A DNA stretch of 64,000 nucleotides from a plasmid, in the sequence record CP063550.1; one strand, given 5' to 3'. The first letter of the stretch is position 1, and each line of letters starts with the position of its first letter. The position numbers are program-made. Positions 18,801-24,800 of this stretch are shown here, in pieces.

Positions 18801-21800
18801 CCTTATTCCAATGGAAAAATAGAAGCGAAGAATACCCACATAAAGACAATGAAACGAGTATCCTACGGATTTAAATCATTTGAGAACATGAGAATTAGAA
18901 TCTTTTTGATCAATCAATTAATCAATGTAAGATAACAAAAAATCTGAGCCAGAATGTGGTTCATTCTGACTCAGATTTGATTTTGCACAACTCATCAGTC
19001 CTTATTGACAAAGAGCCTAGAAATATACTACATTCATTCGCTTTTCTACCGCACTATTTCGTTTCTATGTTCCATGTACCCCGTATCGGCGATGGCATTT
19101 AGGACAGTAAAAGTAATTTTTTTGATAAACACTTTTTGCTAATTCCCCACAGTCACACTCCACGTGAAAAGCAATATTTCGATTAAAACTAGTTATTTCA
19201 ATGCCCCAACGATCATAAGATTTTCGCTTCATAAAAATTTTCCTCCTTGTAAATTTTACTAACGATTATAAATACCGTTGCCATTCTTTCAACTGTTGAC
19301 TAATTAACGCATAAAATTCGACTTCTGATAAAATGGTAATCTCATGACCTAACGCAATCAAGTCCCGCGCGGTTTGTTCCTTTTTTGTATAGAGAGAATC
19401 ATCAAACAACGACTTAGAATACTGACCACAAACCAGGAAATTTGTTTTTGAAGTAACACTTGATTGACAATGGCCGTTTAAAGAGTGAACCAAACCGATG
19501 GCTTGGGTTCGTGTCATTTGCTGCAGCGTTCCAGTAAAAACGACCCTTTGATTCGTTAAGTCCATTTTCAAACTCTCCCTTCCCGTCTAATAGCTGTTAT
19601 ATCTATCAAGAAAAGTGGTGCAAGGTATGTTCATATTCTTTCACCCGTCGATAAAAGGTATTTCGTTTCATGCCCAATTGATCCATAGCATAGACTGCAG
19701 TTATCTTTCCTGCTTTCCAGTCAGAATAGATCGCAGGAAATTCAGGAGGTAAAGCAATTTTCTTTCTGCCGAATTTTACACCCTTTTGTTTCGCAGCTTC
19801 TACGCCTTCTCTTTGCCGGCTATTAATTCGTTTCCGCTCGTCTTCGGCCATATAGCTGAGTAATTGCAGAATTAAGTCAGAGATAAGCGTCTCTAACCCA
19901 TCTAGTTGCTTGTAACTAGCAGTATCTAACAGAGGCATGTCTAACACAGAAATATCAATCTGCTTTTCCTTAGTTAATTCTCGCCATTCTTCTAAAATCA
20001 TTTGTTTATTTCTGCCTAGTCTATCTAATGATTGTAGATAGAGTAAATCTCCTTTTCGAAACATCCGTTTCATTAATTGATATTCAGGGCGTTTAAAATC
20101 TTTGCCGCTGGCTTTTTCTACAAATATATATTCTTCAGGGATTCCTAATTCCTTCGCGGAAATCAGTTGTCGTTCGATCGATTGATCATAACTACTGACC
20201 CGGATATAAAAAAATTTTCTCATCGTTTTTATCTACCCTTTTTTCACTAAAATTGTTTCAAAACAATCAGATTAAATCAGAAACGTTTCAAATTGTATTA
20301 TGTGGTTATTATGCCATACATAAACAAAGAAAATCAAGGCATGTCAAAAAGTATACTTTTTGAAACAGTAAGTTTACACTCCCGCATGATTATATTTATT
20401 CCGCTAAAATACATAAAAATGGCAGGCCTTAACGGTCTGCCATTAAATAAACTAGTTATCCAGTTTTTCTTTTATGTCTTCCATGGTATATTTTATTTTT
20501 CACATCAGAATTTGACTTCTTTAACTTTTACAATTTTTTTAACACTATTATTCTATTACAACACTATATATTTCTAATTTAGGGTTAAAAATAAATCTTT
20601 TTGATACTTTTGCCTTTACAATATAATTGTATTCTTTCTTTTTTTCTTTGAAGTCGCTTGATTCAACTGTAACTTCAAACCACATTTCATTTGGAGACTC
20701 TTTTAATTTTTTTACTTGAAATGAATTATCTCTTGGATCATAAGGTGGTACTCTTTCAAACTCAGGAAGTTTTCTCTGTATTTGTTCTTCAGGAGTATTC
20801 GCAAAGTAATCTACTATCTTGACAGTTATTAAAAGTACTACTATTCCCAAAACTATAACAAACATAAAGATAATTCCACATCCAGAATTATTTTTATTAT
20901 TTTGAGTCAGATTATTCCATTCTATTTCTTCCATAATCATCATGTCCTTTTACAATTCATATACTTATTTTATCGTATATATTTAAAAAGGAAAAGGACA
21001 CTGTTTAAATAGTAAACGATTCTTAATTAAGTTTACTTCTATTTTCTTGAAATTGAATAATTTTTTCAGAAAATCCATTTGCAACTTTCCCCTCATCTCC
21101 AATAAAATCAAGATAAGTAAAATCTGTCCCAAGTGAATTATTAACTATTTTATCAATGAAAAATGAAATTATCCCTACACCTAAGATATCAACTGTTTCG
21201 TCATTTTCTAATAAACTATTTGTTACTGAAGCGATTTTATCTGAAGAACCAAATCTGTTCTTAACAAATTGATTAAATCTATCAATAGCACCCTTATCAC
21301 AATAGTACGTTTTTAAAGCCGATAAAGCTGTTGAATCAGAATTTCTTTTTGCTAAGGTATAAACATTTACCGCGTCAACATCTTGGTATAAATCTTCTAG
21401 ACTAAATGTTCCACCTGCAGCCGTACCTACTAATGCAAATACACCTTGCTCCATTTGTATTCCTAATTTCTTAACTTCACCCCAGCAAGTCATTAAATCT
21501 CCTAACCAACCTGCAAAGTCAGAAACACTATCATTGATTGTGTCGGCTAGAAACATCTGTGATTGTAACGTCACAATTAAGTGAGGCAAACCTATTATTG
21601 AACCAGTATTAGGATCTATAAAATAATTATACAGGCCCTCGCTATTAGTTAATTTATTCCTATATTCATCATAAATTTTTCTATCATGCTCTGTTACAGG
21701 AGAAGAAATGATGTCCCATGACAAACCAGAATAATTTACATATCTATAAAATGTCAAATGAGGGTTCCAAGGATTATCAAGACCAGCTTGTGATAGATAT

Positions 21801-24800
21801 TGATACGCACGTACCATCTGATTTATAACCTTCTGATTGTATTTGGCAATGTAATTATCATTATTAGTATCATTTGATAACTCATTAAATCCGCTATCTC
21901 TACCCGATGTAGCGATTAAATCGATACCAACAGCTCCGTTGCCACTTCCTATGGTAAATTCAACAAATTGATCAAAAGACCATTGTCTAGGCATAGGAAA
22001 ACCTAAATTCCCACTATAACCAGTCGACATATCTGAAACAAATGCAAACGAAGCATACCCGTTATTGATTATTTGAGAACAAACATTTCTTGTTCCGTAA
22101 ACACCCGTTTGATACCCGCTATATGACATTACAGCAGATACCCCCTTAAAATATTCTCCAGCATATGCAAGAATTTCTTCCCCTAACATGTCTAGATCAA
22201 CAGCAAAATAAATAACTGTTGTTAATGGTATATTTAGATTTTTTGCTGCATCTATAGCCTTCTTACCATCTGATAAGCCACGATCATAAGTAAAATAAGC
22301 TAATGCTGCACCTCCATCTTGATAGATAGGAAACACAGATAAATTTTTAGAAAAAATATTATTCAATTCCTCTGTAGTTAGATACTTATTTCGTTCATCT
22401 TTTCCAATTCCAACAGTACCAGTAAGATATCTACCAACTATTTTTATATCATTATCAACCAATGTTTGGATTTGAGATCTAGTTAATTGCGTAGAAGTAT
22501 CTGCGCCATCTGCAGATCTTCTAATATCTCCAGCGCTAGACAATAGTCCTTTTATTACAACAACATCTGCTATTTCAGTATATTCAGGCAATACCATAAA
22601 TTTTCGGAATGCCAGTACTTCTAAACCCATATATTTAGTGAAAATACCATCGAATGTACCGTCTTCAAAATAACCATTAACATATAATCCATATTGAATT
22701 ATTCTTACATAGTTTCCCGAGTTACCTTCAGACACAGGATAAGTTTTACTAGTTGTCCCATTACCATAAGACCCTGTTGCTTCACTGGGAGAATATCCTA
22801 GTTCAGCTTGTAATGCAAAAATTAATGCTTGATTTGAATTTCTTTGATAAATACCATCACAAGGCATTATTCCCGTGTATTCTAAATAATTTACATTTAA
22901 CCATTGCTGCATTTTTCTAATTTTACTATCTCCGCCGGGAACAAGAACAAAAGCACTCATATCAAATAACGCTTTGGCCCATTTCGCATCCAAAACTCCA
23001 GTTACAGCGCTTCCATTAAACCCTGCATCAGTCTGCAACTCTTTTACAGCAGTATCTAAATATGGAGTATATACCCCATCGAAGCCACCTGGATTAATCC
23101 CCTTACACCAAAAGGCACCTTGAATAAGAAATACAATATTTTTAGGTAGATTTTTGCCCCATTTAGGAGTAACCTGATTATCGTACATTTTTTCAGTGGT
23201 AGGTCCAAAATTAGCTACTAGATTAGTAATACCAAGTTCTACTTGTAGTCCTTCAATAAGTCCATAGATTGTAGGCCACCCTGTTCGCCCATTTTCTGGA
23301 ACCTTATCAAACCCTGTAACATTACTGTATTTCTTGTTTAGCCATTTCTGAGTACTTAAAACCATCTCATCCATAAAAATCCCCTGCTTTCTTGCCGAAC
23401 ATACGTTCGTTTATGTGTTGATTATATTTTATATTTTAGTGTTTGTCAACAACTAAAAATAATAAAACAGCACAAAGAAATCTCTTTGTGCTGTTTTATT
23501 AAATATTTTGAACAACATAATACGTACCTGCAACAGGATTATAAGTGTAATAAATACCTATATTCATTGTCCAACCAGGCCCGTTTGGTGCAAAGTATTT
23601 GAATCCTTCACGAGCATACAATGCCATTCCTTGAATAGAACCAGATTTAGTTGCGTTGGCTTGATTTACATTTCCTACTCTTCCATCGTCAATGTAGGAT
23701 TTCCAACGTAAAAAGTTGCCTGTACCATCAGCTGGTTTTACACCCATACCTCCAAAACGCCATCCCGCACCACTAAATGGCTGTGATTTATAGCTTCCTC
23801 CTCCTGCTAGTACAAGAAGGTGTCCGCTAGTACCAACATCGGGTGGAAATGCTCCTCGAGGCATAATTGGAGTAGTTTCAATATCATTTTTGAATTTTTC
23901 AGCAACAATTTTTTTTGCTTCTGTCACTGAAACTGAAGCAGGATCAGTTTCTGAATTATATGAACCTTGAATTATATCTGGATTATCCATAGATACAATT
24001 TTAGCTTCCCCTTTTAAAAAACCACCTTCTGGCAATGCAAGTACTTTATCTTCTTCTTCAAAATCAGCAAAGTATCGTGAGGCGTACTGCTCTGGATCTG
24101 AAATAACTTCTTTCTCAGCAGCATATACTGCATTTCCAAATGTTAACATCATAAGTAGCCCAACAGAAACACCAAAAATCTTTTTCATAATGAATCTTCC
24201 TTTACTCTAATTCCACTGAATTAGTTTCTTTTATCTGCTTTAATTCATTTCTTTTACTATTTAAAAGCTCTTTTAGATCCTTAATCGAAATAGCGTTGGA
24301 ATCAGTATTAACATCAATAAACTGTCTGTGATTTTGTTTATAACTAACTAATTCGGATTTGCCATCTCCCATTAATTGCCCACCAGCAGACAAGACAACA
24401 ATTTTATCTGAGTCACTAATTCCTGGAATACTTTCTTCTAACTGTTCCCCGGATAAATCACCAAATTCTTTATACAATTCTTCATCTGACATAGAATAGA
24501 TATTTTTGGTCAAACTCATTTTTTTATTATTATGTTCAGCTACTCTTTGATCTTTTATTTGAGCGTTTGAATTAACAGAATCTAAATTCAAAAGAAAATA
24601 GCCCCCAATTAATATTGTAAATACTGAAAAAATACTTAGTATCGTTTTTTTCACGATTCTCACCTCGCTTTCTTATTAAATTTATAATATATATCTACGA
24701 TAAGATAATTGGTGGATTTGAGTCAATACCTCGGACACGATTTGTGAGAATTTTTTCGAGATTCCAGCGGGTGAGTATCTCATCGTTTCGACCAGCGGTC

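Follow-up and report, generated by a model that had tools for sequence, protein, structure and literature searches.

The question raised by this locus is what a large protein with wall-binding repeats and no export signal does on a plasmid, and what role falls to the small genes around it. The DNA analysed, hereafter the window, is a stretch of 64,000 nucleotides (64 kb) of sequence record CP063550.1, from a conjugative enterococcal megaplasmid carrying both IS elements and resistance genes. An earlier note, made from the sequence alone, had described four minus-strand ORFs of 153, 229, 783 and 131 amino acids as a single operon resembling the Bac41 bacteriolysin locus. All four ORFs were confirmed where the note had placed them (Table 1), and are referred to here as w153, w229, w783 and w131. 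In the public record, w783 is annotated merely as a ‘glycoside hydrolase domain-containing / DUF1906 protein’. Sequence comparison makes it reasonably probable that w783 and w131 form a plasmid toxin–immunity module, in build a Gram-positive counterpart of colicin M, with w153 and w229 as a separate pair.

Table 1. Features of the w783 locus, in positions of the window.
Feature	Position	Strand	Description
w131	20548..20943	-	Protein of 131 aa with one TM segment; candidate immunity partner of w783; ORF call
w783 gene (stop codon included)	21023..23374	-	Leaderless 783-aa BacA-family protein; ORF call
TelC-family domain, w783 residues 505-783	21026..21862	-	Pfam PF27189 ‘YkzU’, of the Lipocone superfamily; candidate toxin domain, putatively a lipid II phosphatase
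Rv2525c-like (GH25-like) TIM barrel, w783 residues 304-485	21920..22465	-	Pfam PF08924, E 5.4e-41
PG-binding-type repeats, w783 residues 1-300	22475..23374	-	Four, A-B-A-B pattern
LexA (Cheo/SOS) box	23396..23409	.	CGAACGTATGTTCG; between -10 hexamer and w783 start codon
Promoter of w783-w131 unit	23421..23449	-	TTGACA-17 nt-TATAAT, 12/12 consensus
Intrinsic terminator of w153-w229 unit	23460..23501	-	19-bp stem, then T-run
w229	23499..24188	-	229-aa Sec-exported protein, separate upstream unit; ORF call
w153	24202..24663	-	Exported or membrane-anchored, first gene of upstream unit; ORF call
IS3-family element	24713..26066	-	Transposase genes read toward w153

The domain composition of w783 largely bore out what had been read by eye. 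The protein has no signal peptide, as claimed; its ORF cannot be lengthened at the 5' end, and all homologs align from their N-terminus with residue 1-2. No export route is evident, signal peptide, holin and LXG domain all being absent. The roughly four peptidoglycan-binding repeats are significant in an internal repeat test (R1~R3, z 8.5; R2~R4, z 7.0), with a Pfam PG_binding_1 match at residues 83-136 (E 1.8e-11). The proposed central Rv2525c/DUF1906-type block was recovered by HMM search as an Rv2525c_GlyHyd-like TIM barrel, with PDB profile matches to 1sfs and to Rv2525c (4pmq/4pmn), a relationship to the endolysin family phrog_13480, and acidic and aromatic residues that are invariant across 20 diverse homologs.

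The C-terminal region, previously thought to hold no motif, is a TelC-type domain with the same fold as TelC and detectable sequence homology to it. TelC of Streptococcus intermedius is a Ca2+-dependent lipid II phosphatase and a T7SS LXG toxin; it is harmless in the cytoplasm, exerts its toxicity from the outside only, and is counteracted by TipC, which is anchored in the membrane (PMC5555719; PMC6193138). The domain in w783 shares with TelC the conserved His, the Asp-rich Ca2+/active-site motif and the clade-specific Asp+6/Arg pair. The equivalent of TelC D401, a residue whose D401A mutant served as the non-toxic negative control (PMC6193138), is Gly595 in w783; this column is Asp in 58% and Gly in 26% of the family, and the activity or substrate of w783 may thus differ from that of TelC. 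Most likely, the killing module of w783 is a lipid II phosphatase domain of the TelC family rather than a wall-lysing one, so that the label ‘bacteriolysin’ fits the mechanism only loosely. A leaderless precursor made in the cytoplasm is compatible with the restriction of TelC activity to the outside of the cell. Whereas TelC relies on an LXG domain and a T7SS, w783 has neither and instead carries a wall-binding, BacA-type N-terminus as a putative delivery module, implying a diffusible rather than contact-dependent toxin.

The likeness to Bac41 proved to be one of real homology in the effector, though not in the rest of the locus. Against BacA from a verified Bac41 locus, w783 shows 48% identity across residues 1-568, and its homologs number more than 2,300. 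Like the Bac41 locus of E. faecalis pYI14 (bacL1-bacL2-bacA-bacI), the w783 locus is plasmid-borne in enterococci, and both effectors are leaderless, have the same PG-binding repeats and Rv2525c-like barrel, and are followed by a small membrane-protein gene. They part at the C-terminus, where BacA has a YbfG_C (PF21015) domain and a hydrophobic tail in place of the TelC domain, and no homolog of BacL1, BacL2, holin or BacI was found in the 64-kb window.

The single operon of the earlier note resolves into two transcription units, divided between w229 and w783 by a terminator, a promoter and a LexA box. The terminator (23501-23460) has a folding energy of -25 kcal/mol and a z-score of -9.3, with 0 of 200 shuffles folding as well, and the promoter is the sole 12/12 consensus match within 20300-24950. 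The LexA box is the sole perfect CGAAC-N4-GTTCG in the window (expected 0.02), as judged by the general Gram-positive consensus (PMC11442139), from which LexA binding in Enterococcus is predicted. Across 665 kb of surveyed loci, all ten perfect boxes lie within 200 nt 5' of BacA-like genes, in at least five sequence contexts and several Lactobacillales lineages; in one homologous promoter group, the arms of the box are constant while its spacer varies. By contrast, bacA itself has no LexA box upstream. All three elements are kept in a mosaic relative of the locus, L011. These features suggest that the w783 promoter is most likely under LexA/SOS control.

L011 is informative in other respects. 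Its w153 and w229 are 81% and 92% identical to those of the window, and residues 1-165 of its toxin are 98-100% identical to w783, whereas the toxin C-terminus has diverged to 12-36% identity and the gene downstream is unrelated to w131. Alignment thus indicates that the toxin C-terminus and the downstream gene were swapped together.

The conservation of w153 and w229 beside a diverged toxin could also be taken to mean that the four genes cooperate, with w783 not lethal by itself and needing the exported w229 (with w153) in a BacL1-like role, for targeting or for opening the wall, as Bac41 BacA kills only with BacL1. Secreted proteins do recur near TelC-type loci: w229, whose signal peptide as claimed is of the classic Sec type on direct reading (MKK...NAVYA/AEKE), is weakly similar to those adjoining L009 (203 aa) and L007 (132 aa), and a Lactococcus locus has a neighbour with a ZoocinA target-recognition domain (E 3.9e-8). 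However, neither w229 nor w153 matches an enzyme or wall-binding family in Pfam, NCBIfam or PHROG, and the strong terminator and separate promoter divide them from w783. In addition, about 40-50 of the roughly 270 plasmids with the w783-w131 pair are devoid of w153-w229, and chromosomal relatives such as L006/L016 consist of toxin and small gene alone. We therefore consider such a two-component system unlikely, if still deserving of some weight. For its part, w229 belongs to no family in these three databases and is a near-orphan, with 2 clusters among 5.8 billion proteins; it shares a paralogous segment with w153.

The preferred reading of a toxin–immunity module gives the immunity role to w131. 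The description of this protein as a single-helix membrane protein agrees with its one hydrophobic helix (residues ~22-43 by direct reading); its N-terminus is acidic, leaving the membrane topology ambiguous, and the AF2 model is poor (pLDDT 61), with merely generic NTF2/cystatin-like matches. Homologs are confined to Enterococcus. In layout w131 resembles TipC, with a TM segment at the N-terminus and a soluble domain behind it, but it is about half as large, and no sequence similarity between the two is detectable. Nor is any detectable to BacI, or to the proteins encoded downstream of the closest relatives of the toxin (toxin domain ~60% identical). Even so, nearly all Lactobacillales TelC-type loci have a gene for a small membrane protein or lipoprotein 0-100 nt 3' of the toxin, and across the compared loci the type of this gene follows the C-terminal sub-clade of the toxin: an anchored small protein in clade A, a 4-5 TM protein of 133-143 aa in clade B, a 5-TM protein of 196 aa in clade C, a 2-TM family for YbfG_C-type toxins, and the 4-TM BacI for BacA. 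In Bac41 subtypes, effector–immunity specificity is tied to partial diversity (PMC8532689). In an E. canis chromosome a w131 homolog persists intact as an orphan, the toxin gene being absent, and in another E. canis locus (L015) a copy adjoins a toxin remnant without the catalytic core. Sub-clade co-variation, the joint swap in L011 and the E. canis orphans together make w131 a probable immunity factor, and toxin plus adjacent immunity gene the best-supported reading.

It is quite improbable that w131 instead serves as a holin-like or release factor with a single TM segment, or is simply an unrelated membrane protein, with immunity lying elsewhere or being unneeded against other-species targets. 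Such a role would suit a leaderless protein that needs some exit, a holin-family gene is present in the Bac41 locus, and the dissimilarity of w131 to TipC, BacI and the small proteins of neighbouring loci points the same way. Many Bacillaceae TelC-type loci are without an adjacent same-strand small gene, and the Lipocone study groups PGBD-Rv2525c-TelC proteins with systems usually without immunity proteins (PMC12419801). Against this stand the co-variation described above and the E. canis orphan, since persistence after toxin loss is not expected of a dedicated release factor. Furthermore, w131 has no holin family match in Pfam or PHROG, and some proteins encoded downstream of TelC-type toxins are lipoproteins, which cannot be holins.

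That w783 is a self-directed wall-remodelling enzyme, for example in conjugation, or an autolysin/endolysin remnant, is highly improbable: the plasmid is conjugative, the barrel has a relative among phage endolysin domains, and no peptidoglycan-degrading activity was detected for BacA, but BacA is a proven bacteriocin component, the C-terminal domain of w783 falls in a toxin family with its catalytic residues intact, no phage genes surround w783 on the megaplasmid and 50,697 phage genomes gave just 2 weak matches, homologs also occur on 9-kb non-mobilizable plasmids and in chromosomes beside housekeeping genes, and modular C-termini, mosaic recombination and an orphan partner gene are typical signs of a conflict system. 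The locus does not lie in a prophage and is not a housekeeping autolysin, either of which would have spoken against the original proposal.

Under the toxin–immunity reading, DNA damage would lead to LexA cleavage and induction of leaderless w783, which, like cytoplasmic TelC, would be harmless to its producer. The protein may leave by lysis of an SOS-induced subpopulation, or by whatever route leaderless BacA takes. On a target enterococcus, the PG-binding/TIM-barrel module would dock on the wall and open it or thread through, and the TelC-like domain would cleave lipid II, perhaps also undecaprenyl-PP, on the external side of the cell membrane, halting wall synthesis and lysing the cell. Membrane-anchored w131 would block the toxin domain in plasmid carriers. 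The terminator-insulated exported pair w153-w229 may be an accessory wall-targeting factor, one not required for carriage of the module.

The likeness to colicin M and Cmi of E. coli is a functional analogy only, between plasmid-borne released toxins; a sequence or fold relationship is not expected. Colicin M joins receptor and translocation modules to a C-terminal lipid II-cleaving domain, which cuts at the undecaprenyl-phosphate linkage, and differs from w783 in its FhuA/TonB-dependent uptake through a Gram-negative envelope. SOS regulation is typical of colicin operons, and Cmi is a periplasmic protein with an N-terminal anchor. Colicin M also served as the control enzyme in TelC assays (PMC5555719).

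If correct, this reading describes a DNA-damage-inducible, wall-binding toxin that destroys lipid II in rivals while its producer is protected, and joins two known systems, Bac41 BacA and TelC. The PGBD-Rv2525c-TelC architecture is already known from a computational catalogue (Burroughs et al., eLife 2025, PMC12419801), which reads it as a conflict system and, in Actinomycetota, notes fast-evolving partner genes for secreted or 3-TM proteins. The passages of that study that were searched name neither Bac41/BacA nor Enterococcus, and do not touch on SOS/LexA control, partner genes in Firmicutes or orphaned immunity genes. New here are the connection to Bac41, the probable SOS control, the evidence for an immunity gene and the distribution on VRE plasmids, the w783-w131 pair being common on Enterococcus faecium hospital megaplasmids.

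Upstream, the IS3 element matches a second, inverted copy at 2157-3510 with 100% identity. Its end lies 49 bp away from the GTG at 24663, against the 39 bp given in the earlier note; that ORF stands, but GTG 24654 (150 aa) is the likelier w153 start, on which NCBI annotation, RBS and L011 alignment agree. Homology with L011 stops at the IS3 end, indicating that the native region upstream of w153 has been replaced by the element. Expression by read-through from IS3, as the earlier note suggested, could concern the upstream pair at most, the toxin gene lying behind the terminator with its own promoter. An outward -35-like TTGACT (24726-24721) within the IS3 end and a TATCGT at 24702-24697 suggest that the w153-w229 unit is now probably driven from there.

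w783, the 783-residue protein of the minus-strand locus, is built from three parts. The roughly four tandem peptidoglycan-binding repeats described in the earlier note occupy its first 300 residues in an A-B-A-B arrangement (first against third repeat, z 8.5; second against fourth, z 7.0), and Pfam places PG_binding_1 at residues 83–136 and Rv2525c_GlyHyd-like, a TIM barrel, at 304–485 (E = 5e-41). The protein indeed lacks a signal peptide, and all homologues align from its residue 1 or 2. Homologues of ~48% identity are carried by E. faecalis plasmids, one of which holds the full Bac41 locus (L001), with genes for a 595-aa peptidoglycan amidohydrolase-family protein (BacL1), BacL2, a holin-family protein, a 175-aa protein, the 726-aa BacA and a 180-aa protein with four transmembrane (TM) helices (BacI). 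BacA shares with w783 the peptidoglycan-binding repeats and the Rv2525c-like domain, with the same Pfam domains, at 48% identity over residues 1–568. Beyond this point the two diverge completely, BacA ending in YbfG_C (PF21015) and a hydrophobic tail, whereas w783 has no YbfG_C match. The proposed likeness to Bac41 therefore holds for w783 and BacA and fails for the rest of the system: blastp and tblastn over the whole window gave no match to the BacL1 endopeptidase, the BacL2 regulator, the holin-family protein or other Bac41 ORFs, and w131, the 131-aa product of the downstream gene, has no similarity to BacI.

Bac41 killing needs BacA together with BacL1, an endopeptidase. Peptidoglycan-degrading activity has never been detected for BacA, whose role is called ‘undefined’ in the literature, and we found no functional literature on ybfG/ykuG. 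The BacA family comprises more than 2,300 matches, with a conserved core of ~500 aa followed by several alternative C-termini. Giant members (~1,580–1,660 aa), encoded by Clostridia and Eubacteriales MAGs (L045, L086, L087, L090), carry over 1,000 additional residues beyond the conserved N-terminal core.

The C-terminal ~300 residues of w783, in which no motif had been recognised, are by fold and profile a domain of the prok-TelC family, part of the Lipocone superfamily (residues ~505–783). An AlphaFold model built from 17 sequences is all-alpha (pLDDT 90, pTM 0.90), and among PDB entries Foldseek ranks Streptococcus intermedius TelC (5ukh) first, with a probability of 0.96. TelC was likewise the sole PDB match (5ukh_A, E = 1.5e-9) of a profile built from 24 diverse copies of the domain, in three collinear blocks: DFxH, aGWxGD and D..aD.D.vNI...YY...R. 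A profile of full-length w783 found the TIM barrel only, TelC surfacing with the deeper, domain-only profile. Precomputed protein-database annotations tag the subgroup to which the region belongs as PF27189 ‘YkzU’. A sensitive search returned 198 representative homologues, some of them in proteins of quite another build: the domain occurs with Big_2 and Ricin lectin domains or Ig-like regions in proteins that have a Sec signal, and as stand-alone proteins of 230–290 aa.

Across 135 unique domains, H598, G625, D626, D661 and D665 of w783 are 100% conserved, W623 and D667 (six residues after D661) 99%, and R699 96%. H598, the Asp-rich motif, D667 and R699 correspond to the TelC-clade features set out in passages of Burroughs et al. 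(PMC12419801), namely a histidine in H2, an aspartate in H4, an Asp six residues later and a partner Arg in the C-terminal helix. The assignment carries one reservation: the equivalent of TelC D401, a residue whose alanine variant served as a non-toxic control (PMC6193138), is Gly595 by a numbering worked out from the construct description; 58% of the family have Asp in this column and 26% have Gly. TelC itself cleaves lipid II as a Ca2+-dependent phosphatase, is toxic solely from outside the cell and is blocked by the membrane-anchored TipC (PMC5555719, PMC6193138). Computation thus shows a TelC-family domain in w783 with a catalytic core that is intact at the level of predicted residues, and lipid II phosphatase is its putative activity. 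Pfam detects no LXG domain in w783, the N-terminus being taken up by the peptidoglycan-binding repeats instead, and the type VII secretion (T7SS) genetic context is absent. A T7SS LXG toxin gene with DUF3958 lies ~3 kb from a TelC-type BacA-like locus in E. phoeniculicola (L007/L008, 370–1824), the only species where such a neighbour was seen; the two form a chromosomal antagonism-gene cluster.

All four minus-strand ORFs were recovered at exactly the coordinates first reported. The single four-gene operon proposed for them was dropped: because a terminator, a promoter and a LexA box lie between the w229 stop and the w783 start, the locus consists of two units, w153–w229 and w783–w131. All three signals are kept in L011, a mosaic relative.

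Features of the locus and its surroundings in the window
Feature	Coordinates	Details
w153 gene	24202–24663	minus strand
w229 gene	23499–24188	minus strand
w783 gene	21023–23374	minus strand
w131 gene	20548–20943	minus strand
Hairpin with T-tail	23501–23460	19 bp; −25 kcal/mol, z −9.3
Promoter	23449–23421	TTGACA-17-TATAAT; sole 12/12 sigma-70 consensus in the region
LexA box	23396–23409	CGAACGTATGTTCG; sole perfect Gram-positive box in the 64-kb window (expected 0.02)
IS3-family copy	24713–26066	100% identical to the inverted copy
Inverted IS3-family copy	2157–3510
Possible hybrid promoter	24697–24726	TTGACT, 18-nt spacer, TATCGT
IS1216/IS6-family copies	16268–17022, 26067–26821, 47808–48562
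IS1216/IS6-family fragments	near 8774–8909, 13089–13222, 13906–14039
Genes directly downstream of w131	19266–20223	serine recombinase/resolvase (205 aa), BRCT-domain protein (101 aa), Cys-rich ORF (55 aa)
Higher-GC block	30000–40000	GC 40–44%, against ~33% in the rest of the window
w153 segment resembling w229	24255–24414	w153 residues ~84–137
w229 segment resembling w153	23895–24056	w229 residues ~45–98

The window matches Enterococcus faecium megaplasmids, and the 4.6-kb locus is present in 348 plasmid records, at 99% identity or more in 303 of them. Taken separately, w783 matched 283 records of the plasmid collection (254 with at least 80% coverage) and w131 278 (272), against 234 (229) for w153–w229; since these counts differ, the two units are separable. 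A Bac41-style arrangement in which the exported w229 and w153 are required for killing is, in our estimation, rather unlikely. Some 270 sequenced plasmids carry the w783–w131 pair at 99% conservation or more. Most are megaplasmids of clinical E. faecium; many are conjugative, and resistance genes are present on some. In public annotation w783 is only ‘glycoside hydrolase domain-containing’ or ‘DUF1906’, and w131, w229 and w153 are hypothetical. Plasmids of E. faecalis, and three of Staphylococcus, also have near-identical copies of the locus, a sign that it has recently crossed species and genus boundaries.

The w783 LexA box sits between the −10 hexamer and the start codon. Boxes were scored as perfect CGAAC-N4-GTTCG, the general Gram-positive consensus (PMC11442139) from which the Enterococcus operator is inferred. 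In a survey of 79 loci (665 kb), 10 of 10 perfect boxes lay in the 200-nt zones that precede BacA-like genes, 15.8 kb in total, and none was found in the remainder of the 665 kb. They span at least five sequence contexts and precede TelC-type and other C-terminal types alike; within one homologous promoter group the box arms are conserved and the 4-nt spacer varies. Four further loci have boxes with one mismatch, and bacA itself and several other relatives have none upstream. By computation, then, w783 has its own promoter with a predicted LexA operator.

Among TelC-type relatives, a small gene follows closely behind the toxin gene, with stop and start often overlapping or adjacent. These downstream proteins have no family-wide homology, and their type follows the toxin-domain sub-clade. 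In clade A (the window, L009, L003 and L016; domain identity 41–62%) the partner is a small TM- or lipid-anchored protein; in clade B (L011, L017, L018; 49–57%) it has 4–5 TM helices and 133–143 aa, and in clade C (L019–L021, L083; 92–100%) five TM helices and 196 aa. The YbfG_C type of Bacillus is followed by a 2-TM family, and BacA (L001) by the 4-TM BacI. The mosaic L011 follows the same pattern within a single locus: relative to the window, its w153 and w229 counterparts are 81% and 92% identical and its toxin is 98–100% identical over residues 1–165, falling to 40–76% in the TIM barrel and 12–36% in the C-terminal domain, and its downstream gene encodes a 4-TM protein unrelated to w131.

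Homologues of w131 are confined to Enterococcus. An intact one, 76% identical, lies on the E. canis chromosome without a toxin gene, and another, in the related contig L015, stands behind a toxin pseudogene (5107–5456) reduced to residues 513–567 and 721–782, its internal deletion having taken out exactly the catalytic core (residues 568–720). Keeping the small gene after toxin loss is the expected behaviour of an immunity gene. Co-variation of partner and toxin, the L011 mosaic and the orphan copies together suggest that w131 is probably the cognate immunity protein. In passages of Burroughs et al. (PMC12419801), every immunity protein assigned to a Lipocone toxin is, as TipC is, either a TM protein or a lipoprotein, and a review (PMC8532689) documents effector–immunity specificity among Bac41 subtypes.

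w131 itself has one TM helix (residues ~22–43) and an 88-aa C-terminal domain, and its flanking charges leave the topology ambiguous. No similarity was found between w131 and TipC, BacI or the clade-A downstream proteins; for the partners of the nearest toxin relatives, hhalign showed no relation to w131 (probability 1%). TipC has a crescent alpha/beta fold (three helices, seven strands), and the structure model of w131 is poor. Many Bacillaceae TelC-type loci have no adjoining same-strand small gene. In a Lactococcus TelC-type locus (L003, 3832–4428 and 7633–8235; L004), the pair is flanked by paralogous secreted proteins of ~200 aa that carry a ZoocinA target-recognition domain (E = 3.9e-8); a HATPase_c_5/LytTR two-component pair lies downstream, and the same pair is present in L007. 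A 9.5-kb L. plantarum plasmid (L002, 6803–7643) bears a TelC-type toxin gene 21 codons shorter than those of L019–L021, followed by an IS5 transposase in place of the 196-aa 5-TM partner of related loci; it looks like an IS-disrupted copy that retains its LexA box at −129.

Two other assignments have evidence against them. The partner-gene co-variation, the orphan retention and the context data speak against w131 as a release factor, and w783 as a self-directed wall enzyme has both the partner-gene evidence and the context data against it. A prophage endolysin, the counter-case raised in the earlier note, is dismissed: the locus lies in no prophage lysis cassette, has IS elements, resolvases, aac(6')-aph(2'') and a two-component system for neighbours and no phage genes nearby, gave two weak matches in 50,697 phage records, and resembles an endolysin family in the TIM barrel of w783 only.

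The domain composition, the separable upstream unit, and the partner-gene co-variation with orphan retention are computed results; the mechanism that we propose around them is conditional. DNA damage would induce w783, which, being leaderless, would be inert in the cytoplasm, by analogy with cytoplasmic TelC. Its release would come about when induced cells lyse, or through whatever route BacA takes. The peptidoglycan-binding/TIM-barrel module might then dock on the target wall and open it, the TelC-like domain would cleave lipid II, and w131 would protect plasmid carriers. The pair would in this way be a Gram-positive functional analogue of colicin M–Cmi. More broadly, we put forward tentatively, as a real possibility short of an even chance, that BacA-family proteins are the colicin equivalents of Gram-positive bacteria: leaderless, often SOS-induced, modular bacteriocins in three parts. 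These would be a conserved N-terminal module that binds and crosses the wall, a swappable C-terminal killing domain (a TelC-type lipid II phosphatase in w783, YbfG_C in BacA, others elsewhere) and a cognate membrane immunity protein from a downstream gene. If so, the role of BacA in Bac41 would be explained, with BacA killing and BacL1 opening the wall.

The domain-level identification is not new, as Burroughs et al. had already reported the architecture of peptidoglycan-binding, Rv2525c and TelC domains computationally, reading it, in the part of that paper concerned (PMC12419801), as a conflict system; its relevant passages contain no mention of Bac41, Enterococcus or SOS. According to reviews, enterococci have just two recognised bacteriolysins, both in E. 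faecalis (PMC8532689), and the w783 gene is missing from reviews and surveys of enterococcal bacteriocins, including recent E. faecium surveys. What is new is the homology that links BacA, a bacteriocin component studied by experiment, to killing domains of the TelC type; the modular toxin/immunity co-variation in Firmicutes, with recurrent LexA boxes and an orphan putative immunity gene; and the broad carriage of the locus on clinical E. faecium plasmids.

Should these assignments be true, VRE plasmids encode a T7SS-independent lipid II-degrading toxin that could influence gut strain replacement and make the plasmid more stable, and fluoroquinolones and other SOS inducers would switch on its production. 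Under the colicin-like reading, hospital E. faecium megaplasmids would bear an unrecognised anti-lipid II weapon inducible by DNA-damaging antibiotics. The BacA-family killing step would be open to lipid II assays, TLC/HPLC assays of lipid II and C55-PP phosphatase activity being published (PMC5555719, PMC5892711), and the natural wall-targeting modules with their varied killing domains might find use in engineered anti-enterococcal lysins.

Between the IS3 copy beside the locus and the annotated w153 start (GTG 24663) the distance is 49 bp, where 39 bp was first stated; the element has displaced upstream sequence that is present in L011. The likelier w153 start is GTG at 24654, giving 150 aa in agreement with the NCBI annotation. 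An outward −35-like TTGACT inside the IS3 end and a TATCGT in the flanking DNA form a possible IS-created hybrid promoter for w153–w229; the suggested IS-driven expression is thus plausible for that unit only, w783–w131 having a separate promoter.

The identical inverted IS3 copies stand 21 kb apart, with the toxin locus, resolvase genes and further IS elements between them, and could mobilise or invert the entire bracketed segment. The multiple IS1216/IS6 copies and end fragments mark the window as a heavily IS-rearranged mosaic. Like the window locus, the toxin locus of L009 adjoins a resolvase. The higher-GC block, which in a matching plasmid carries genes for an ABC transporter, an alkaline-phosphatase-family protein and a solute-binding protein, suggests a foreign origin.

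Searches of Pfam, NCBIfam and PHROGs placed w131, w229 and w153 in no curated family above threshold; matches of w131 to DUF6488, FliL and HtpX were far below it and were discarded. In homologue searches w229 is essentially an orphan, its alignment too shallow for structure prediction. A weak resemblance links a segment of w153 with one of w229, and the clearest pair of this kind, the L011 protein L011_160 against w229, is 31% identical over 70 aa (E = 1e-5); the shared segment makes w153 and w229 partial paralogues.
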